Shown one piece after another: positions 6,570-55,965 of a stretch of DNA of 64,000 nucleotides; the first letter of the stretch is position 1, and each line of letters opens with the position of its first letter. Made by a program: the position numbers and the translations under genes. Source of the DNA: Podarcis cretensis (Eukaryota). The stretch covers positions 7,626,001 to 7,690,000 of the forward strand of contig OX638164.1 in the NCBI GenBank assembly GCA_951804945.1. The letters are read 5' to 3'. Under the pieces are notes generated by a model that saw nothing but the letters and a program-made list of their open reading frames with translations, was not told the origin of the DNA and did no database searches.

Positions 6570-7263
6570 GTATGTACACTCTCCTCTACTTATAATGTTC
6601 CTCATGAGAGGATTTTCTGCTAATACTGTGCTGTTTTTATGAACAACTCCCCCTTTTATATTTTAAAAAACAACTTTCGAAGGAAATGTATTTAATTCAG
6701 ATGAATTGCATGATTGAAGTTAACCTAGGCTGTAGAATTAATTGTATTTAATGGTCTTATTCCCAAGTTGATGCTGTTTGAGGATACTTAACTGTTGCAG
6801 AGAGAGAACTGAGAATTTGTTGACTGCCATTAGTTTTCTAAAAAAGAATCCAGTGGTTTTGCCAGATTACCAGGAAACCTGAGAATAGCCGCAGGTTGAT
6901 GGTTAATTTGTTGGCCTGCAAGCACTCCATAGCCATTGGCTGAGCTGCTGTGAGGGGATCAAAACATTCTCACTGCTCAGGAGTGAACTGTCAGCAATGA
7001 GGGTCTGGAGCTGGAAGGGGCCATGTGTTGCAGTGGGAAGGGATACTTAGAGGTGGAGGGCTGGCTTTGCAAGAGTACAGGTATGAACCCACAAAAAATT
7101 GCAGTAAGGTTTATGTAATGGACTAGCCGTCCATTATTTAATGGACCCTTCTAAGGACTGCCATGCCAGGGGTTCAGAGTCTTCTCTGGGGTGTCTTTAA
7201 TTTTAATGTTTAGGAAAAACAACAACCTTTGGTCTCTTTTTATATCTCTTTCTTGTTTTTTAG

Positions 7264-7691
7264 AAGCTGCTAACCTGTGCCAAACGTCCACTGCTGCCAC
7301 TACGCCTGTGACTCTTTCTACTCCCTTCAATATAACTTCCTCAGTGGCATCTGGGACCATCACCAACCCAGTCACAGTGGCTGCTGCAATGAACATGAGA
7401 AGCCCAGTCAATGTATCAAGCGCAGTTAACATCTCCAGCCCGATGAGCCTAGGCCACCCTGTCACCATTACCAGTCCGTTGTCTATGACCTCTCCGTTAA
7501 CACTCACCACACCTGTTAATTTACCAACTTCAGTAACTGCTCCAGTGAACATAGCACATCCGGTCACTATAACCTCACCCATGAACCTCCCGACGCCAAT
7601 GACATTAGCTGGTCCATTAAATATAGCAATGAGGCCAGTGGAGAGCATGCCTTTCCTTCCCCAGGCATTGCCAACCTCTCCCCCATGGTAA
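7264..7691 (+). CDS. VEZF1: VEZF1 terminal coding exon (Pro/Ser/Thr-rich C-terminus)
   Basis: Long polypyrimidine tract plus TAG (7261-7263). Translates EAANLCQTSTAATTPVTL...MRPVESMPFLPQALPTSPPW, stop TAA at 7689-7691; the recognisable VEZF1 C-terminus. Confidence 0.97.
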
Positions 7692-16699: not shown

Positions 16700-18080
16700 T
16701 GTCTTTTAGCCCGGGAGTGCAGTGCTGAGTCGTCGCAATTTGATATAATATGCTCGGGTACTCATGCCATGTGTTTGCGCGTGACGGACCGGGGCCACCA
16801 CGCCTTGGGTCTGAAGAACCCCAACAGCAAGGGAAATTAGGGGGAGGGCAAACTCCCGGCCAAATTTGGGAGCTGCTCTAGTCCTTTGTGAGCCCCTCCT
16901 CTTTCTCTCCCCCCCCCCGCCGTGTTCTCGACACCCTCGGCTCCCCCCCCCCCCGCTTTCCTCCTCAAATCTGTGCCACTTGTGGCGAGGCGGCCTTCCT
17001 ACGGGGAGGAGGGGTGTGTTACACAGCTGCGTTTCAAACAACCGGCCGCTAGGCTTGGGGAGGGGAAAAGGTGGGGGGCTAAGAGAGAAAGCAGAGAGAA
17101 AGGCAGCTTCGCCCGCCGTTACGTTGCCCTCCTGTGTTTGCAATGGATCTGTGTGACCATCGGGGAGGGAGAGGCGATCCAGCGAGCGGCCACGCCAGCA
17201 TACATTAAAAGGCGCGCCTCCTCCAGCGACCAACCTGCCCCCCTCTCCAAGGTCTTGGATACGGAGGAGGAACAACTGCGAGGGAACTAACGTAGGTAGA
17301 CCGGGGGAGCGAGCGGGGAGGGAGAAGCGGGCGTAGCTCTTCTCCTAGAGGGGAGGGGTCGGCGGCGGCAGGAGGATCCTTGCAACACCCAGCGCGCTCT
17401 CCCTACCCATATCTTCGGCTAGCCCTAGCCTGCTTCTTCCCCCGGCAGCGCAGCGGTGTCGCGCGTCTCCCCTCCGAGCCCTCCTCGAGTGGCGCGGGTA
17501 AGCTTTGGAACGCTGGGGGTGGGGAGCGGGGCGGGGGAGGGGCCCTTTTGGAACGCCGAGGCGCCTTTTGGAACGCCGGGGACGGAATTGTGGCTACTTT
17601 CCGCCGCTTCCCTTTTTGCGCGCGCCGAGCGTTCTCTTAGAGACCCTCCTCGCGGGAAAAGGGGAAATAAAGGGGGTTGGGAACCCCACCCCCGAAACGC
17701 GGCGGCCGTTCCTACCCTCCCCACCCGGGTTTCCGAAAGCTGTAGCAGCTGACTTTCCAGCCCACCCACCTACCCCGCGTCTCCCCTCCATAGCGGCCTG
17801 TTTTGGAGCCCGCGGTGCTTCTCGCCTCCCTCTCCCTTTGCGCCTCGGAGGGCCCTCTCCTCTAATGAGGCGCGTTCTCGGCTCTGCTTTCGGTTCCTCG
17901 CTCCTAGAAGGACCTGGCGGATTGGAGGCGGCTGGGTTGGCTGGTGTCCCTGCGCTTCTTCCTTCTCCTCCAGGCGGTCATGTCCCCCACCTCCTTTTTC
18001 CGCCACCCCCTTATTTCAACTGCGAGGGGCGTGTGGTTTGGAGGGCGCAGATAAGAGCGTCTTTCCCAGTGTAAAGGGGC
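16700..18080 (+). promoter_or_regulatory. CpG island promoter of the downstream gene (CUEDC1 by synteny inference)
   Basis: The only strongly GC- and CpG-rich host segment in the window, with GC boxes and dG/dC strings. In mammals CUEDC1 starts just downstream of VEZF1 on the same strand with a non-coding exon 1 and a very long intron 1 (recalled). Confidence 0.8.
17230..17497 (+). other. Probable non-coding first exon (start approximate)
   Basis: TATA-like cattaaaa at ~17203, strong donor CGG|GTAAGC at 17498, weaker donor AAC|GTAGGT at 17292. Confidence 0.5.
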
Positions 18081-46125: not shown

Positions 46126-47308
46126 GTTGATGAACCCCTGATGCTCCAAATCGTTACTTCCCTTCCCACTGAATGGGCCAACTTTGGCAAGGGGTAGGCC
46201 CACCAACCTGTCAATCATCTGATGTCATAATGATAGTAGATGATTGATACTCGTGGAAGGGGGGCAAATGGCGCACATGAGTAGGCGTTCGACTCTTCAC
46301 CTGTTGGACAAGGAGTTCAGTCCTTCTTTGTCCAGATTTGGGTGTGTGAGGGAGTTCTGTGCATGGTACCCCCTCATGCACCCAAACTGAGGAGTATTCA
46401 GCCCCCCCCCCCCATCAGCTAACTGGTTCGGTGTTGGTGTGTGATAATCCTGTCTTATGCCGGTTTTGTGTTAGTGAAGCAGGCTTTGAGTTACCCGCAC
46501 CCCGGTTTCTGTGTTACAAAAGCACTGAGTATTGCCTTCACATTCTCGCCGTACTCCCTTCTTGTAAATCTTATTTCATGTTTGAATTCCCTCAGCTATT
46601 TCAAGAATGTCATCCTACTGAGGTCAGATTACTTTCCCATGCAATGTATAGAGAGAGCAAGCCTGCGAGGCATAGCACTTTTCAATTAAGTCCCTCTACT
46701 TTTCTCAATTAATTTCTTAATTTAGAAGTATAGGAGGCTGGAATTCTAGTATGGAATAGCAACACATCAGTCACAAGATACAAAGGGGGAGGGGAACCCC
46801 CCCACACACACACTTCAGATAGTTTTAAAGGCTGTTCTAGAGAGGGTCAATGCCCCCCAACACATTTTTCTGAAAGCCAGATGTGGTTGTTTGGGTCCTC
46901 GCCTTCGTAGCATTGAAGTATTGCTTTTTTAAAGACATAAATTTGCATTGTGGCTTGAGAGTTGAGCAAATAAGGTGGCAAGACAGATGCTCATCTAGTG
47001 GGGAGCGGGGAAGACGCCCACATTCTCCAGGAACGGAGAGACACAGGTTCAAATCCCTGACTAGTCTTGGACCCTGGACCCCAAGGAGGAGACACTGTTT
47101 TCCCTGTGTGGCAGGTAACCCAGAGCAGCCGTAGGAACAGAGAACCCCTTTCCTTCCCACAGTTGCTCCAGCAAAAGTGCTGCCTGGTGACTATCTGTAG
47201 GAGGCTAGTAAAACCAGGTCATTTTCTAGATCCCCCGATCCTCTTTGTATGCCCATTCTTTCCATTGCTGTGGTTGGTATCAGTTTGTTCATTTGTTCTC
47301 TCAGCTTC

Positions 47309-48381
47309 TGTAGTAATGCTCACCCCCAACCGCTTGCCCCTCCCTTCTCCTGTCTCTGCTCTCCGGCCAGACTAGGACGCCCAGGGCAAGGTTGGCGGGT
47401 GAATTACTTTTTTCAGAACAGAACAAACACGACCCGGTAGGGCTGCCACCACTCCCTATGTCCAGGGGACACCGAACCACAACCCAGGGAGAAGGCTGTG
47501 ACCCATTTAACCTGGCTGTCCCCCTGTTCCACAAGCTGTATCCACAGACTTGCAGGCAGAAGTTCTACGGTAGAGCGTAACCAAGCGTAAGGCTAGGACT
47601 TAGCTATTCCCTCCGGAAAGGCACACAAACTGAAACAGTTTCATTCTAAAAAGGTTTATTTTAAAATAACATAAAAACATGCTAGATTAGCAGGCACTCT
47701 TTTGAACGTTACAGACAAGAAAATAAGAACATTGCATAGTATACCTAGCTATACATACTCACAAGCTCTAACACACAATAGGATAGTTGAAACCTTTAGG
47801 ACTCTGCAAGTTGAAGGCTTTTGAAGATCTCCATTTCAAAAGGCAAAACGACGGCTGATAAGATGGGACATCAGAGCCGGGCCTCTATGCGGATTGCAGA
47901 GCAATGGCAGAGAGCGCCATTTCTCAAACAATTCCCTGATCCTTTATTCACAATTCGCATTCTGCGTCGTAACTTTCAAGCCAATCATAAGACTCAAATT
48001 ATTTTTGAATACACCAATGACCGGCTTGCTGGTCAATCAATTTACTTCTTGACAGCTGGGCCAATTTGGAATCCAAACTTTAAATCAAAGGGTTTCCTCC
48101 CTTCCGTGGAAATTAGCCAGAGACACATTCCCAAGCAATCCAAGGACAGATAGCATCACTGAGGGGGGATGTTTGCACCCTCGAACTCAGGTGTTAGATC
48201 TTTCATTAAATCAAGGCTTCCTTGGTTCCCATAAAGCTTTCAACTAAGGAGACATCTAGTCTAGAGTTTAAAGATACACACTTCTTTCCCAGGGTCCTTG
48301 TGGCTGATGAAACTCCCACAAGGCCTCACTCCTTTTGCTTGACCAAAGAATAATTTTCTAAATAAGACTAACTTTACTACA
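47309..48381 (-). repeat. 3' LTR
   Basis: Direct repeat of 53698-54770; one mismatch found by eye (A47847 vs G54236). Confidence 0.97.
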
Positions 48382-48392
48382 CCCTCCCCTCT
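48382..48392 (-). other. Polypurine tract AGAGGGGAGGG
   Basis: Directly abuts the 3' LTR TG on the - strand. Confidence 0.9.
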
Positions 48393-48563
48393 AAGATGAA
48401 ATTATAGGGTGAAGTCCCATAATTTCATCAAAGAAAATTATTTACAGACTGAGGTAGATCATCCGGTCCAGGGGGCTTTAGCAGCTTTTAAGACATACAT
48501 CACTAGCAGCACCCCCCTAATCCGATTTTTCACAGTTCTTAGGCAATACTCAATAATAACATC

Positions 48564-51500
48564 TCATGGAACAGATTGGTACATCCTAGACAAAGTATCA
48601 GCAACAACGTTACTCTTTCCTGCGATGTGAGTGACTTTAAACTGAAAATCTTGAAGAGCCATACTCCACCTAAGCAATTTCTGGTTGGATGATTTCACCC
48701 TTTCCAACCAACACAGTGGAGAGTGGTCAGTTTGAACCTCAAAGGTGTTACCCCACAGATAAGGACGCAGTTTGGTCAGAGCCCAGACCAAAGCAAAACA
48801 CTCCTTCTCTATGGTTGAATAATTTTGTTCAGAAGTGATCAACTTTTTACTCAAGTAAACCACAGGACGCCAGTTTCCTTTTTCATCTTCTTGGAGCAAA
48901 ACTGCTCCTAGTCCAGTCTGACTGGCATCAGTCTGCACTATAAACGGACGTCTCTGATCTGGGGCCAGCATGACTTGGGAACTCATAAGGGCATGTTTTA
49001 ACAAATCAAAGGCCCTTTGGCACTCCTCGGTCCAATTTACTCTAACTGGCAAAGACTTCTTACAAAGGTTGGTGAGCGGAGCAGCTAAAGTTGCAAAATG
49101 GTTGACGAAGCGCCTATAATAATTCACCAACCCGATAAAAGACTGCACATCCTTCTTCACGATGGGGCGAGGCCATTCTTGAATGCACTGCACCTTGGCC
49201 TCTAAAGTCTTGATGTTTCCTGACCCCACTCTAAATCCTAAGTACACTACTTCCCCTTGGGCAAACTGGCATTTTGATATTTTAACAGTCAGGTTTGCCT
49301 CTTGCAACCGGGCCAAAACTCTCTGCACATGCTTAAGGTGTTCTGGCCACGATTCAGAAAAAATTGCTAGATCATCTAAATAAGCACAGCAAAACTCATT
49401 CAGGTCATGAATCAAGGAGTTGATTAACCGTTGGAAAGCTGCAGGAGCATTTCGTAATCCAAACGGCAGCACTTTAAACTGGTACAAGCCTACATGAGTG
49501 ACAAAAGCAGACTTTTCAGAAGCTTCTGGGGACAGCGGGATTTGCCAATACCCTTTTGTCAGATCCATGACAGTGATGAATCTCGCCCGTCCCAATTTCT
49601 CAATCAAGGTGTCAATCCTAGGTAAGGGAAACACATCAGGGACAGTAACTAGGTTAATTTTTCGATAGTCTATGCAAAAACGAATAGTTCCGTCTGGTTT
49701 TGGAACCAGTACTATGGGAGAAGCCCAAGCACTCTTACTAGGTTCTATAACTCCCAACTCCAACATTTCTTTCAATTCCGTCTCAATGTTCTGTGCATGT
49801 GCCTCACCAACTCGGTATGGACGTGAGGAAATGGGGGGAGTGTCCCCCGTGACAAAATGATGTTGAGCCAAGTGAGTCTTACCAGGCTTGGTGCTAAATG
49901 TGTTGCTATAAGGTTGCAGTGCTTCATAGAGCTCTTTAGCCTGAGTCTCACTTAAAGTCGGCAGCTGCAATACATCAGAAATACTTCCAGCCTGTTTGTA
50001 TTCAGTTAAAAGATCCACAGGTGAAGCAGGCACCTCCTCCTGGCTCCGCGAAATGGCTAGCACAGAGATCTTTTGTTCCACAAACTCTTTCAAAGAATTA
50101 ACATGATACTCGCGAGCAGTGGGGTGCAATTCCTTGCATTTTACAAGGTAACGCACAGGACTCAGCCTCGCTTCCACAACACCAGGACCTTGCCATTTCA
50201 CATCTAACTTGTGGGGGCGAGACGGTCTTAAAATCCATACCTGATCCCCCACCTCAAACTGTTTGCACACAGCTTTGGCATCATGTACTCTTTTTTGATC
50301 TAATCGGGCGTTCTCTAAATTCTCTTTGGCCAGTTGCCAAATGTCTGCCAGAGTTCCTTTTAATTGGGCAAAATACTCACTAACTGAAGGCAGTTTTATC
50401 TCTTCCTCAGAACCTTCCCACTCTTTTCGAAGCATTGAGAGAGGGGTATTCAGAAGCCTTCCAAAAATTAACTGATTGGGTGCAAACCCAAGGCTTCTTT
50501 GATGGGCATCATTATAAGCAGCCACCACCAAAGGCAAATCTTGGTCCCAACTAGTACCATGGGCCAGGGCATACTTGCGCAGCATCTGAACCAAGGTCTT
50601 TTGCACTCTTTCCACCAACCCATTTCCCTGATGCTGGTAAGCAATGGATGTATGGTGGCGAACCTCAGACAAACGCAAGACCTCCTGGGTTACTTTAGCC
50701 ATAAAATTAGTTCCCAAATCGCTCACCAAAACTTTAGGAATTCCTAGGGAACAGAAGGCAGAAATTAAAGCCTTAACCAGACTATTAGCAGAGGTATTAG
50801 TCAAACTTGTGGCATAAACATAACGAGACGCATAATCAATGATCACGCACAGATATTGCTTCCCTGAGCGAGTTTTTGGTAAGGGACCCACTAAATCAAT
50901 TCCCCACTTTTCCAAAACATTTGCTTCTAAGGGGACACTCTGTAACTCATTGGGCAGGTTATCACGGTCATTCCCCACCTTCTGGCAAATTACACAAGAA
51001 CGCACATATGCTTTAGTGGTTTGATACACATCAGGCCAGTAGAAGTAACGAGTCAGTCTCTCTAAGGTCTTTTGTAGTCCCATATGACCCGCCAAGCCGT
51101 CTTCATGGGCTAAGCTAAGAACAGTAGATCGCTTCTTTTCTGGAACCACTAGTTGTAAAACAAAATCTTTATCTTTCACCTTTTTTGGTACAAATTGTCG
51201 ATATAAAAGTCCCTTTTTATACACAAATTGGGCCCTCTTCGTTCCTCGGAGAGGAGTTCCAACCGCCTCCCGACAATCCTGCAAGGAGGGGTCAGCCCTT
51301 TGCTCAGCAGCAAACTCTCCCAGGTCTCCCAGTTCCACAGAACCATTAAGGTCCTTCTTGGCAACCTCATCCAAGACAGGTAACTCTCCCTCCCCTCCAG
51401 GTTTTCCATCCAACCCAGTCTCAAACTCCACCACATCCTTCCCTGCCGGGGAGGGGGTGGGGGGAGTTGCCACAGTTACCGGATTCACATTCAGCTGTTG

Positions 51501-53576
51501 CTGCAGATAGACTTGAAACCCAAGATCATTCCCAACCAAAACGGGGCTTTTGCAGACTTCTGGGTCATGAACAATTACCAAATGGTCCCCACTATAACCT
51601 TTGTATTTAAGGGGAACTATTGCTGTTGGCTGGAAAATTTCCTCCACTCCATAAGGGCTAATCTTTAAAGGTTTAGCCTGCATCTGGCTGGGTAAAACCA
51701 GATCTTTCGACACGCTAGTAATATCAGAACCAGTGTCCCGGTACGAGTCCACAACAGTTTTATTGATCTCGATAGGGGCAGAAAACTCCAAATTTGCCCA
51801 ATTCACATGGGGTGTTTTTACAGAGTTCTTGGTGCATACAGGACCCACGGTCACGGATGTTTCAGGTTTATTCCGAACAGGTGTTGACCCACCCTCCTCC
51901 TTCAGAGCCAAACTTTCCACTGCTCCAGGTGTTGTCGATTTCTCCTCCCAATTTTCCTCCTGCCGCTGTATCATACGGACAGCAGGGGTGGAGGTACGAA
52001 CGGGGGGGTTTTTCCCACTCAACTGGGGACAAACTGCCTTTACGTGCCCCGGTTTTTTGCAAAAGAAACACAGTCCAGAACTCGGGGGCACCTTAGCACG
52101 CTCTCCCCCAGCTGCAGCGGAGTCTTTAGCAGGTGTAGGCAATCCTTTACTGGATTCTTTGATGGGGGGGGCGGACCTTCCCGACGATGCTGTAGATTTA
52201 TACATGTTACTCTGTCCTTTATTGACAAGATGGGTGCGGTTCAGCCAAAAAGATTCAGCAAGGGCGGTGGCTTCTGCCAGCGTCCTGGGCTTTTTATCGG
52301 CAACCAAACTAACAATTTCCGGGGGCAGGGAGCGCATCAATTGTTCAATTAACAGCAGCTGCTTGATCCCTTTCAAATCCTCTACCCCCTCGGCTGCAAG
52401 CCACAGTTCAAAGTTTTGGGCCATTTTGGCAGAGAAGACTGCAATGTTGTCAGTGAGCCCTCCCCTTTCCACTTTCCGAAAAGCTTTTCGATAGTGTTCA
52501 GGATGTAAGCCATGCCGCTGCATGACTAATCTTTTAAAGCTTTCATAGTCATTCATATCATCTGGGGGGAGGTGTCCCATAAGCTCGGACAAGTCACCAC
52601 AAACTAGGGGACGTAACACCGCCATATACAGTTCTGGCGCAACCCCCATGTCCCGGCAAGTCACCTCAAAAAGATTTAGATAACTAAGGGCATCAGTGGG
52701 GGGGTGGTATTTCTGGAACACCTTCCAGTTAAGATTACTTAAAGTCAGTCCTGGAGGGGACCGTTGGTATTGGTCTCCCCCCCTCCTCGGGACAGGTTCA
52801 TACCTTGGTGTAGGGTTAGGAGGCAATTGCCCCTGGGCGTGTAGCTGTTCCGCCGCCGTTGTTGCGTATCCACGCAGGGGTCTCTGGAAGTACTCTTCCT
52901 CCTCCTCCTCTTCTGCCTCGTACCTTCGCACCGGCACACGCACCTCTCGAGCCCTCACCGGCGAGTAGACTCTGCCTGGGCTGATTGGACGCTGTCTCAC
53001 CCTCCGGCGAACGTCCGGCGCTGGCGGCTCTCGACGGCAGTCTCCTACAGTCATCTCCTGTGGCTGCTGCGACAGGTCTTGAAAGTGAGGCGCCATCCGG
53101 CTAGCTCTTGGTCCCATTAAAAGAGACTGGTTCACTCTGGGATACTTATCACGGCAGCGGAATCCACCGTTCACCGGATCTCGCATCCACTCCACATCAT
53201 GTCCTTCTGAGAAATCCATCTCTTTAGGCTCTTTAGGTTCTGCATGGACAGAATAATTCTTTCTAGAACGCGTGGAGTCCACCACGGCCTCTGCCTCCTC
53301 ACGAGGGGATAGGGTTTGGTTAATTGGCGTGCCCTTCCCCCTGTCCACAATGCAGGACTCTCGCTGGCCCCTCCGGACCGTGCTTATTTTACTGGCATCC
53401 GCCAACTCTTCCTCCGATCCTGAGCCATCCGAAAACCAGGAAGCGGATTTCACTCCAGGGCTCACAGTTCTAGGGGGGTCGGTTTCCACCGGGAGGGAGC
53501 TATCTTCTCCCAAATATCCCCATTGATCTACAGTTTGTAATGATTGCTGTTGCGAAGTTAACAAACTGTCCTCCAT
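48564..53576 (-). CDS. Gag-Pol polyprotein, 1670 aa from the first ATG: SCAN-like capsid, CCHC, protease, integrase, RT, RNase H
   Basis: SCAN-like HPEHYRKAFR..W...QLLLIEQLMRSLP...PRTLAEATALAE (52505-52245); CFFCKKPGHVKAVC (52070-52029); DTGS (~51735); HHCC plus IDLVGP/SDLGTNF/GLVER and WQGP (~51110-50180); RT with DLTKGYWQ and YLDD (49382-49371); RNase H TDAS, EKEC, TDH, ADTLSR. Confidence 0.95.
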   Translation of the reverse strand: MEDSLLTSQQQSLQTVDQWGYLGEDSSLPVETDPPRTVSPGVKSASWFSDGSGSEEELADASKISTVRRGQRESCIVDRGKGTPINQTLSPREEAEAVVDSTRSRKNYSVHAEPKEPKEMDFSEGHDVEWMRDPVNGGFRCRDKYPRVNQSLLMGPRASRMAPHFQDLSQQPQEMTVGDCRREPPAPDVRRRVRQRPISPGRVYSPVRAREVRVPVRRYEAEEEEEEEYFQRPLRGYATTAAEQLHAQGQLPPNPTPRYEPVPRRGGDQYQRSPPGLTLSNLNWKVFQKYHPPTDALSYLNLFEVTCRDMGVAPELYMAVLRPLVCGDLSELMGHLPPDDMNDYESFKRLVMQRHGLHPEHYRKAFRKVERGGLTDNIAVFSAKMAQNFELWLAAEGVEDLKGIKQLLLIEQLMRSLPPEIVSLVADKKPRTLAEATALAESFWLNRTHLVNKGQSNMYKSTASSGRSAPPIKESSKGLPTPAKDSAAAGGERAKVPPSSGLCFFCKKPGHVKAVCPQLSGKNPPVRTSTPAVRMIQRQEENWEEKSTTPGAVESLALKEEGGSTPVRNKPETSVTVGPVCTKNSVKTPHVNWANLEFSAPIEINKTVVDSYRDTGSDITSVSKDLVLPSQMQAKPLKISPYGVEEIFQPTAIVPLKYKGYSGDHLVIVHDPEVCKSPVLVGNDLGFQVYLQQQLNVNPVTVATPPTPSPAGKDVVEFETGLDGKPGGEGELPVLDEVAKKDLNGSVELGDLGEFAAEQRADPSLQDCREAVGTPLRGTKRAQFVYKKGLLYRQFVPKKVKDKDFVLQLVVPEKKRSTVLSLAHEDGLAGHMGLQKTLERLTRYFYWPDVYQTTKAYVRSCVICQKVGNDRDNLPNELQSVPLEANVLEKWGIDLVGPLPKTRSGKQYLCVIIDYASRYVYATSLTNTSANSLVKALISAFCSLGIPKVLVSDLGTNFMAKVTQEVLRLSEVRHHTSIAYQHQGNGLVERVQKTLVQMLRKYALAHGTSWDQDLPLVVAAYNDAHQRSLGFAPNQLIFGRLLNTPLSMLRKEWEGSEEEIKLPSVSEYFAQLKGTLADIWQLAKENLENARLDQKRVHDAKAVCKQFEVGDQVWILRPSRPHKLDVKWQGPGVVEARLSPVRYLVKCKELHPTAREYHVNSLKEFVEQKISVLAISRSQEEVPASPVDLLTEYKQAGSISDVLQLPTLSETQAKELYEALQPYSNTFSTKPGKTHLAQHHFVTGDTPPISSRPYRVGEAHAQNIETELKEMLELGVIEPSKSAWASPIVLVPKPDGTIRFCIDYRKINLVTVPDVFPLPRIDTLIEKLGRARFITVMDLTKGYWQIPLSPEASEKSAFVTHVGLYQFKVLPFGLRNAPAAFQRLINSLIHDLNEFCCAYLDDLAIFSESWPEHLKHVQRVLARLQEANLTVKISKCQFAQGEVVYLGFRVGSGNIKTLEAKVQCIQEWPRPIVKKDVQSFIGLVNYYRRFVNHFATLAAPLTNLCKKSLPVRVNWTEECQRAFDLLKHALMSSQVMLAPDQRRPFIVQTDASQTGLGAVLLQEDEKGNWRPVVYLSKKLITSEQNYSTIEKECFALVWALTKLRPYLWGNTFEVQTDHSPLCWLERVKSSNQKLLRWSMALQDFQFKVTHIAGKSNVVADTLSRMYQSVP

Positions 53577-53677
53577 TCTCCTAACTATCACTATCCAAAA
53601 AAAATAAACCACCTGTAACCCACAAAAGATTCGTGCCAAGTTTTAAAAGATCAAAGTGCCTTTCCGTGGGAAGTTCA

Positions 53678-53697
53678 ATCCCACCACGCTGCCAACA
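53678..53697 (-). other. Primer binding site, tRNA-Leu(AAG/TAG)-like, imperfect
   Basis: Minus strand TGTTGGCAGCGTGGTGGGAT directly after the 5' LTR, versus the expected TGGTGGCAGCGGTGGGAT. Confidence 0.75.
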
Positions 53698-54770
53698 TGT
53701 AGTAATGCTCACCCCCAACCGCTTGCCCCTCCCTTCTCCTGTCTCTGCTCTCCGGCCAGACTAGGACGCCCAGGGCAAGGTTGGCGGGTGAATTACTTTT
53801 TTCAGAACAGAACAAACACGACCCGGTAGGGCTGCCACCACTCCCTATGTCCAGGGGACACCGAACCACAACCCAGGGAGAAGGCTGTGACCCATTTAAC
53901 CTGGCTGTCCCCCTGTTCCACAAGCTGTATCCACAGACTTGCAGGCAGAAGTTCTACGGTAGAGCGTAACCAAGCGTAAGGCTAGGACTTAGCTATTCCC
54001 TCCGGAAAGGCACACAAACTGAAACAGTTTCATTCTAAAAAGGTTTATTTTAAAATAACATAAAAACATGCTAGATTAGCAGGCACTCTTTTGAACGTTA
54101 CAGACAAGAAAATAAGAACATTGCATAGTATACCTAGCTATACATACTCACAAGCTCTAACACACAATAGGATAGTTGAAACCTTTAGGACTCTGCAAGT
54201 TGAAGGCTTTTGAAGATCTCCATTTCAAAAGGCAAGACGACGGCTGATAAGATGGGACATCAGAGCCGGGCCTCTATGCGGATTGCAGAGCAATGGCAGA
54301 GAGCGCCATTTCTCAAACAATTCCCTGATCCTTTATTCACAATTCGCATTCTGCGTCGTAACTTTCAAGCCAATCATAAGACTCAAATTATTTTTGAATA
54401 CACCAATGACCGGCTTGCTGGTCAATCAATTTACTTCTTGACAGCTGGGCCAATTTGGAATCCAAACTTTAAATCAAAGGGTTTCCTCCCTTCCGTGGAA
54501 ATTAGCCAGAGACACATTCCCAAGCAATCCAAGGACAGATAGCATCACTGAGGGGGGATGTTTGCACCCTCGAACTCAGGTGTTAGATCTTTCATTAAAT
54601 CAAGGCTTCCTTGGTTCCCATAAAGCTTTCAACTAAGGAGACATCTAGTCTAGAGTTTAAAGATACACACTTCTTTCCCAGGGTCCTTGTGGCTGATGAA
54701 ACTCCCACAAGGCCTCACTCCTTTTGCTTGACCAAAGAATAATTTTCTAAATAAGACTAACTTTACTACA
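53698..54770 (-). repeat. 5' LTR (promoter copy)
   Basis: Three CCAAT boxes (~54371, 54403, 54450), TATA-like AATAAAGG at ~54330 and poly(A) signal AATAAA at 54049-54044 on the - strand, consistent with U3-R-U5. Confidence 0.95.
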
Positions 54771-55599
54771 GCTTCTTTCCCCCATTTTGAGGAATACAGA
54801 CAAACTCTACAATTTGCCATTGGTTCTGCATCCCCTGATGGAGCTTTTACTCTGCTGTGGAGTCTTGGAGGATCAGTTGTTGTTGGAAAAGTATGTGTGT
54901 GCCTGGTTGTCCCCAGAGGGCTTGCCCATTTCATTTTCTCCTGATTGCTTTGCGTCCCTGCCCCCCGACAACTAGCTTAGTCTCTGCAGCTTAATATATG
55001 GCTGAACGGCATTAGCAAGGGATCACTCAGGTGCTTTTATTTTATCAGAGTTAGAGGCCAGCGCTCTCCTCTTCCTTCCCCATGTTTTGATGGCACGGCA
55101 GCAATGCTCTGAACTGGCACCGGATAGCCAGGAGCTGCCATTTTAATTTCCCACAATGCCCTAGAGCGATAGTCCTTCAGTTGCATTGTGGGTAATTTAA
55201 ATGGTGGCTCTCAGACTCAAGACTGTTTTGAAATGGAGGCAGAGAGGCTAAGCAGATGTTGGTTTGATATGCTGCCACCAGGACCTTGTAAGCAGGGTCT
55301 GGCCTCTAATGACACCCTCAGTGTGGTGAGCAAGAATTTGGGCCTCTGCTTGTGACATACATATATGGTTTTGCCCTTCTCTGCTTTAACCTCACTGAAA
55401 GTGAGGTCACTCAGAGAGCTTCGTGGGCAGGTCTTCTACCTTAGAATCATAGAATTGTAGAGTTGGAAGGAACTCCAAGGGCCATCTATTCCAACCTCCT
55501 GCAACCTTCTGTGGTTTTGTAGGTGAACGCAAAACTACTTCAGCAAGTCATTAAACAGCGTCTTACCCTTTCCGGTCTTCTGTCATTTAGCAGCACTTC

Positions 55600-55965
55600 T
55601 AGGGATGGGGGAGAAATTAGATCCGGTTTGCATTTAAAGGCGAACCTACCTAATTCACAGTCCCCAAAACAGTACCTGAACTGAAACATGGTCATTCTTC
55701 AAAATGGGCTCGTGTTTAAATCTTGCAATTCAGTTCTCCAGCTAAGGAATGCGTACAGAATGCGTATATTGGTGAAAATACATGATATTAGGCGAAACTG
55801 CTTTGCAAACATGTGCCTATTAGGAGAAATTCGCACTAAGATGCTGGTGGATGAGACCTTTACTTTTTTTAACAAAACAAACAAAAATAAATTGGAAACG
55901 TATATGCAGATGTGGAGAACTGAAGACTGGAAAAATAAGAAACGGAGAGACGCTGAAATTGACTG
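55600..55965 (+). mobile_element. Non-autonomous hAT-like element
   Basis: tagggatgggggagaaatt terminus; similar to the 32619 and 35695 copies. Confidence 0.6.

Follow-up and report, generated by a model that had tools for sequence, protein, structure and literature searches.

A 64-kb stretch of lizard DNA (hereafter, the window) contains what is, with high confidence, a complete Gmr1-like long terminal repeat (LTR) retrotransposon that likely inserted very recently, belongs to a multi-copy family, and is predicted from its sequence to be autonomous. An initial annotation of this DNA had recognized only the coding frame at 48564-53576; the whole element spans 7,462 bp (47309-54770) on the minus strand, and no further pieces of it were found elsewhere in the 64-kb window. 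Two LTRs, TG..CA ends, and a target site duplication within the 4-6 bp range identify it as an LTR retrotransposon. An env gene following pol, as expected of an endogenous retrovirus or errantivirus, is missing, with only 182 nt separating the stop codon from the 3' LTR.

Anatomy and coding capacity of the element

The features of the element are as follows, in window coordinates and with amino acid (aa) positions counted along the 1670-aa protein.

47304-47308, no strand: 5-bp target site duplication, left copy (GCTTC), present as a single copy in the empty allele
47309-48381, minus strand: 3' LTR, 1073 bp, TG..CA ends, identical to the 5' LTR at 1072 of 1073 positions
48382-48392, minus strand: polypurine tract, 11 purines adjoining the 3' LTR
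48382-48563, minus strand: 3' internal spacer, 182 nt, too short for an env gene
48564-53576, minus strand: single gag-pol frame, 1670 aa, no internal stop; ATG at 53576, stop codon ending at 48564
48645-48959, minus strand: RNase H, aa 1540-1644 (PF17917, 2.5e-40)
49227-49706, minus strand: reverse transcriptase core, aa 1291-1450, YLDD at 1399 (PF00078, 1e-34)
50181-50195, minus strand: integrase C-terminal GPY/F-like motif, WQGPG, aa 1128-1132 (motif)
50610-50912, minus strand: integrase catalytic core, D894, D953, and E989 (PF00665, rve at aa 889-981, and motifs)
50976-51146, minus strand: integrase H2C2 zinc-binding domain, aa 811-867 (PF17921, 3.2e-19)
51507-51779, minus strand: aspartic protease, approximately aa 600-690, DTG at 614 (motif and identity to relatives)
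52029-52070, minus strand: nucleocapsid zinc knuckle CX2CX4HX4C, aa 503-516 (motif)
52236-52502, minus strand: capsid C-terminal domain, a SCAN domain, aa 359-447 (PF02023, 6.7e-10)
52737-53576, minus strand: fast-evolving Gag N-terminal extension, approximately 280 aa (163 of 270 residues identical to P. muralis model P0005)
53577-53697, minus strand: 121-nt leader
53673-53697, minus strand: bulged tRNA-Leu-like primer site, directly inside the 5' LTR
53698-54770, minus strand: 5' LTR, 1073 bp
54771-54775, no strand: 5-bp target site duplication, right copy (GCTTC)

The stop-free frame described in the initial annotation was confirmed, as was the absence of a gag/pol frameshift; the chance of equally many stop-free codons at the composition of this frame is approximately 10^-37. 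Pfam families occur along the frame in the order SCAN, Integrase_H2C2, rve, RVT_1, and RT_RNaseH, and the domain initially reported as capsid corresponds to SCAN, with a score of 39.1 bits against the PF02023 cut-off of 27. The initially proposed order of capsid, CCHC knuckle, protease (PR), integrase (IN), reverse transcriptase (RT), and RNase H (RH) was reproduced by Pfam and motifs together; Pfam at E<=0.01, however, reported neither the zinc knuckle nor the protease, both of which were called by motif and by identity to relatives (93 of 99 residues in the protease region are identical to a P. muralis protein). Recognizable catalytic motifs were located as had been claimed, including, in addition to DTG and YLDD, the integrase H/H...C/C residues at 823-864, a D-D(35)-E integrase core with a D-E spacer of 35 residues, an RT catalytic D within MDLTKG (1336-1342), and the RNase H motifs TDAS (1548), IEKEC (1589), TDH (1615), and ADTL (1658). 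A GPY/F-like motif does exist in the integrase tail, but it lacks the aromatic residue, reading WQGPG; this GPG form is common to the P. muralis and Zootoca proteins. The Gag N-terminal extension gave no long alignment with gecko, Anolis, or turtle proteins. Among the 23 coding differences listed and classed site by site, 17 were synonymous, and five of the six non-synonymous differences fall in the linker between protease and integrase, a pattern in line with constraint on the protein.

An antisense stop-free frame of 279 codons crosses the gag-protease region (51655-52491, plus strand), with its first Met at codon 170. Synonymous shuffling reached this length in 3 of 500, 19 of 1000, and 10 of 1000 trials (p of approximately 0.006-0.02), and the translation had no Pfam match; being only mildly unusual, with a late Met and no Pfam match, it was treated as a shadow frame. 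Each LTR also carries an antisense stop-free frame of 112 codons (47815-48153 and 54204-54542, plus strand), again with no Pfam match. Candidate LTR signals are AATAAA at 5' LTR positions 434 and 722 and a TATA-like stretch at approximately 625-645.

With regard to the primer site, a pattern derived from it, with two short gaps allowed, matched 125 metagenome loci; among the 60 matching loci that were scanned, 50 were tRNA-Leu (AAG/TAG), 10 held no gene, and none was another tRNA. The duplex formed by the primer site and tRNA-Leu, for which the partner was a stand-in tRNA-Leu from a metagenome eukaryote that may differ from the lizard's own, reached -34 kcal/mol, which was the best value among 743 windows along the element and was attained by 0 of 1000 shuffles. 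The match is imperfect, with a 2-nt bulge, a gap, and a mismatch opposite the CCA tail; since the deepest contig spanning the site in organism A, the coded organism whose samples best match the window, has the same bulged form, we regard this form as a family trait and not as damage. A further pairing with this tRNA-Leu end occurs at the U5 end (53698-53740, minus strand; -30.7 kcal/mol, attained by 2 of 1000 shuffles), which may represent a second primer contact or else a G-rich coincidence. ARAGORN found no tRNA genes in the 64-kb window, and no description of Gmr1 primer usage was found among titles and abstract openings of the literature, subscription papers aside.

Following established LTR-retrotransposon biology, RNA from the 5' LTR would be translated, with no frameshift, into one Gag-Pol polyprotein, from which the protease would release capsid/SCAN, nucleocapsid, integrase, and RT-RNase H; with these products, a cytoplasmic particle with a SCAN-type capsid would be built. 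Minus-strand synthesis would start from a host tRNA-Leu annealed at the bulged primer site, and plus-strand synthesis from the purine tract. Integrase would then insert the element, joining its TG..CA ends to a target cut with a 5-bp stagger. Lacking an envelope gene, the element would be expected to spread within the germ line and not between cells.

Classification and relatives

RT, RNase H, and integrase are all of the Ty3/gypsy (Metaviridae) type (i.e., RVT_1, gypsy-type RNase H, and Integrase_H2C2), and the best solved-structure match of the RT-RNase H region is Ty3 Gag-Pol (2e-128). The arrangement departs from the canonical Ty3/gypsy order of PR-RT-RH-IN in that integrase precedes RT; PR-IN-RT-RH order with gypsy-type enzymes, a SCAN-homologous capsid, and a fused gag-pol frame are instead the features of Gmr1-like elements. 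Excerpts of the published accounts give SCAN-PR-IN-RT-RH as the order that characterizes Gmr1-like elements (bioRxiv 10.1101/2025.03.03.638093) and integrase upstream of RT as the hallmark of the Gmr1 clade (PMC8220671). They further report that gag and pol are fused into one frame, 1506-1634 aa long, in all pufferfish Gmr families (PMC11117352), that more than 50% of the Gmr elements of frogs carry SCAN (PMC4131045), and that Gmr1 is among the clades still represented by full-length elements in reptile genomes, including those of squamates (PMC3670739). Gmr1-like elements of Anolis carolinensis were treated by Emerson and Thomas (2011), as referred to in papers citing that work. Integrase-first order, SCAN capsid, and single frame are thus all already described for Gmr1-like elements, including full-length reptile ones.

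Integrase before RT in a single frame is also found in Ty1/copia, where this order is normal, and the domain order and single gag-pol frame, taken alone, would fit assignment to that group. We give such an assignment practically no credence, as the element is of gypsy type in its RT and RNase H, in the zinc domain of its integrase, and in its capsid. The domain scan that the initial annotation had called for yielded RVT_1, gypsy-type RNase H, Integrase_H2C2, and SCAN, and neither RVT_2 nor Copia gag families were detected in the 1670-aa protein by Pfam at E<=0.01; the RT-RNase H match to Ty3 points the same way, and RVT_1 or gypsy-type RNase H families are present in all 120 homologues listed.

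Among these 120 homologues, integrase precedes RT in 92, follows it in the usual order in 23, and is missing from 3, while 2 more have integrase before RNase H with RT undetected. FastTree trees of RT-RNase H and of integrase were built from 112 proteins, 9 of 121 being omitted for an RT-RNase H or integrase region that was too short; these trees were unrooted, were scored by best split, and contained neither a named Gmr1 reference nor Copia sequences, and no record named Gmr1 (Atlantic cod) occurs among the 120 homologues listed. In both trees, one branch (support of 0.967 for RT-RNase H and 1.0 for integrase) groups 88 of 89 integrase-first proteins with 0 of 23 integrase-last proteins, and the sole integrase-first exception, P0110, carries two integrases. 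The RT and the integrase of the element both fall together with 87 other proteins that are integrase-first and frequently carry SCAN; these come from turtles, Anolis, fish, and invertebrates. Because 92 of the 120 homologues listed are integrase-first and a single branch parts them from the integrase-last proteins, the order can be read from these sequences as inherited from the ancestor of the clade and not rearranged in this copy. A separate IQ-TREE run with 58 hand-picked rows joined the element to P. muralis with support of 100 and, next, to a gecko and one further protein with support of 99, all within an 11-row reptile branch that includes turtles and Anolis (SH-aLRT 99).

The phylogenetic check proposed in the initial annotation placed RT and integrase alike among integrase-first proteins, near those of Anolis and turtles. 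Together with RVT_1 in place of RVT_2, Ty3 as the best solved match, and the SCAN domain, it agrees with the Gmr1-like call made there; as judged from sequence, membership is supported by the defining features given in the papers and by proximity to the Anolis and turtle proteins.

Identity to the element is 89% for P. muralis, 49% for Zootoca, 46% for gecko, 39% for turtle, and 37% for Anolis. This gradient bears on whether the element was brought into the lizard by recent horizontal transfer, an idea that draws on the breadth of the integrase-first clade, which among the homologues listed spans molluscs, arthropods, and echinoderms as well as fish and turtles, and on the reported depletion of Gmr1-like elements in non-turtle reptiles (bioRxiv 10.1101/2025.03.03.638093, in excerpt). 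We nevertheless consider recent transfer very unlikely, given that the nearest relatives track host kinship from P. muralis down to Anolis, that these relatives form a well supported reptile branch, and that the family or its LTR is present in five coded organisms.

The element is best regarded as a fresh member of the already known Gmr1-like group. It resembles Gmr1-like elements such as Gmr1 of Atlantic cod in its SCAN-PR-IN-RT-RH order, fused frame, and SCAN capsid, and differs from that clade in its lizard-specific Gag N-terminus and in having GPG instead of GPY/F. Its LTRs of 1073 bp and total length of 7.5 kb compare with 337-518 bp and 6.1-6.5 kb, respectively, in the excerpted account of pufferfish Gmr elements (PMC11117352). 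The Anolis carolinensis Gmr1-like elements (UniRef cluster A0A803TGK0, 13 members) have the same order with SCAN and fall in the same 11-row branch, but at 37% identity they constitute a different family. The suggestion in the initial annotation that the family may be uncatalogued is less well supported: the exact 1670-aa protein is absent from a collection of 15 billion sequences, but a P. muralis model that is 89% identical over PR-IN-RT-RH (aa 535-1644) is already in UniRef (UniRef100_A0A670IUR3), annotated as 'Gypsy retrotransposon integrase-like protein 1', i.e., as a host gene fragment and not as an element. Gag pieces from P. muralis and P. lilfordi are 67-81% identical to the element, and these Podarcis models as a whole represent the same or a sister family; several of the related Podarcis models lack integrase, and no full-length protein of the family is among the models listed. 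No account of a lacertid Gmr1 family was found in titles and abstract openings of the literature, subscription papers aside.

Insertion age, empty sites, and family copies

The orthologous site is empty in organism A in all three runs examined (X1, X3, and X4), with single contigs that join 47301 to 54769 and contain the target duplication once. In organisms C and E, flank contigs depart from the window at the same base as the empty site, with the left flank lying outside the stretch; the family or its LTR was detected in five coded organisms and the orthologous flank was covered in four, with thin coverage in organism B, while for organism D a flank contig is absent from the listing. As the organism A flanks differ from the window by approximately 0.5%, compared to 0.09% between the LTRs, the empty sites may reflect a difference between populations or sister species rather than polymorphism within one population. 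If rates of 5 to 1 x 10^-9 per site and year are assumed, which are not measured values, the single LTR mismatch corresponds to 0.09-0.47 million years, and the upper 95% limit is 0.5-2.6 million years. The insertion is thus likely very recent.

No contig examined spans the filled junction and the informative samples all show the empty allele, as would be seen if the intact copy were an assembly artefact, that is, a consensus of collapsed copies. This explanation appears highly improbable and slightly less plausible than horizontal transfer, as the precise 5-bp duplication at the ends agrees with the sequence found once in the empty allele, several letters of the copy in the window, including the 5' LTR difference at 54236, do not occur in the other runs, and the 64-kb window is free of N.

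Read depth within the element exceeds that of the flanks in organism A, with internal contigs at 153-224 versus flanks at 8-9 in X1, 146-233 versus 7-8 in X3, and 771-1367 versus 60-65 in X4. The internal leader is likewise deep in organism D (1159-1732 versus approximately 82). The resulting ratios of approximately 12-30x in organism A and 14-21x in organism D are rough, and depth does not equal copy number. In organisms C and E, internal contigs are each near single-copy depth and the LTR is far deeper.

These data are relevant to the possibility that the family is recently dead or silenced and that this copy, though young, is a relic that has become immobile. One LTR mismatch permits an age of up to 0.5-2.6 million years, and the excess of LTR over internal depth in organisms C and E is what mostly solo LTRs would predict; by contrast, the frame and cis signals are intact, the long, deep, and unbranched internal contigs of organism A imply many near-identical copies, and the internal leader of organism D is also deep. 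We therefore judge a dead family to be unlikely, albeit the most credible of the alternatives weighed, and consider that the family is probably young and still mobile. The potential autonomy noted in the initial annotation is retained as a prediction, given the presence of the motifs and cis signals and the empty orthologous sites.

One X4 contig (depth 126, with 6 ambiguous letters) skips 1974 bases (51383-53356), a multiple of three, such that approximately aa 74-732 (capsid to protease) are lost and integrase-RT remains in frame; this contig is a deleted copy elsewhere in that genome. To the right of the element, 55436-55960 holds very high-copy short repeats with a summed depth thousands of times that of the flank, which probably comprise the ends of SINEs or LINEs together with one small non-autonomous element.

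Host genes, integrase-less relatives, and SCAN

Host coding sequence was recognized in the window from its translations.

1474-1875 and 7263-7688, plus strand: last two coding exons of VEZF1 (a poly-Q exon and the final exon, respectively)

The final exon of VEZF1 is identical to that of Rhineura at 142 of 142 residues, to those of Zootoca, a skink, and two geckos at 141 of 142, and to that of a snake at 139 of 142. The host is therefore most likely a non-snake squamate and, in view of the nearest relatives of the element, probably a lacertid, which supports the lizard host of the initial annotation. All 180 stop-free frames of at least 75 aa outside the element were without a Pfam match. A CpG island at 17001-18000 (GC 0.64, CpG o/e 0.8), with a possible splice donor near 17498, likely marks where the following gene on the plus strand, putatively CUEDC1 by synteny, has its promoter and first exon; the element would then lie antisense within the putative long first intron of that gene.

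Four P. muralis models (P0005, P0007, P0008, and P0242) retain the protease, have approximately 340 shared residues, unrelated to those they replace and in an open frame, in place of the integrase and the start of RT, and resume within RT; two of them retain the whole Gag. The stretch with this segment is 91-95% alike among the three P. muralis models compared, and P. lilfordi model P0256 continues beyond its protease into the opening part of this segment. These gene models may represent a non-autonomous partner subfamily. The broader proposition, that a lacertid Gmr1-type family is spreading now and driving an integrase-less partner in two Podarcis species, with approximately 340 new residues replacing integrase and the frame kept open, is doubtful, more so than the dead-family alternative.

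If true, it would mean that spread is taking place in a lineage for which few Gmr1-like elements but many SCAN zinc-finger genes are reported, and it would allow the question of whether SCAN proteins of the host hold in check the capsid from which they arose to be studied in a living system. According to excerpts of the literature, SCAN in amniote zinc-finger proteins derives from a Gmr1-like capsid, reportedly captured once (bioRxiv 10.1101/2025.03.03.638093; PMC4592553); Gmr1-like elements abound in fish and turtles but are depleted in mammals and in the remaining reptiles, while SCAN genes are expanded in squamates (bioRxiv 10.1101/2025.03.03.638093); and a 2015 review described evidence for retrotransposon repression by SCAN as lacking (PMC4592553). 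A young, amplified squamate family is thus a reasonable place to study SCAN-element conflict. The element shares the SCAN domain with host SCAN zinc-finger proteins but differs from them in that its SCAN is still a capsid and in that it has neither KRAB nor a zinc-finger array. A word-limited search for a second SCAN capture by a host gene covered 1269 candidates, among which no host protein with the SCAN of this family was found; the 3 matches were all Gag pieces, two of them labelled 'centromere protein U'.

The value of the element is mostly that of a catalogue entry, i.e., an intact, dated lacertid representative of Gmr1-like elements and a presence/absence marker. Pieces of the family are at present annotated as host genes. 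The name 'centromere protein U' given to two P. lilfordi models, P0256 and P0257, is a probable mislabel, as both consist of Gag pieces of the family with SCAN and show no match to the CENP-U Pfam family.
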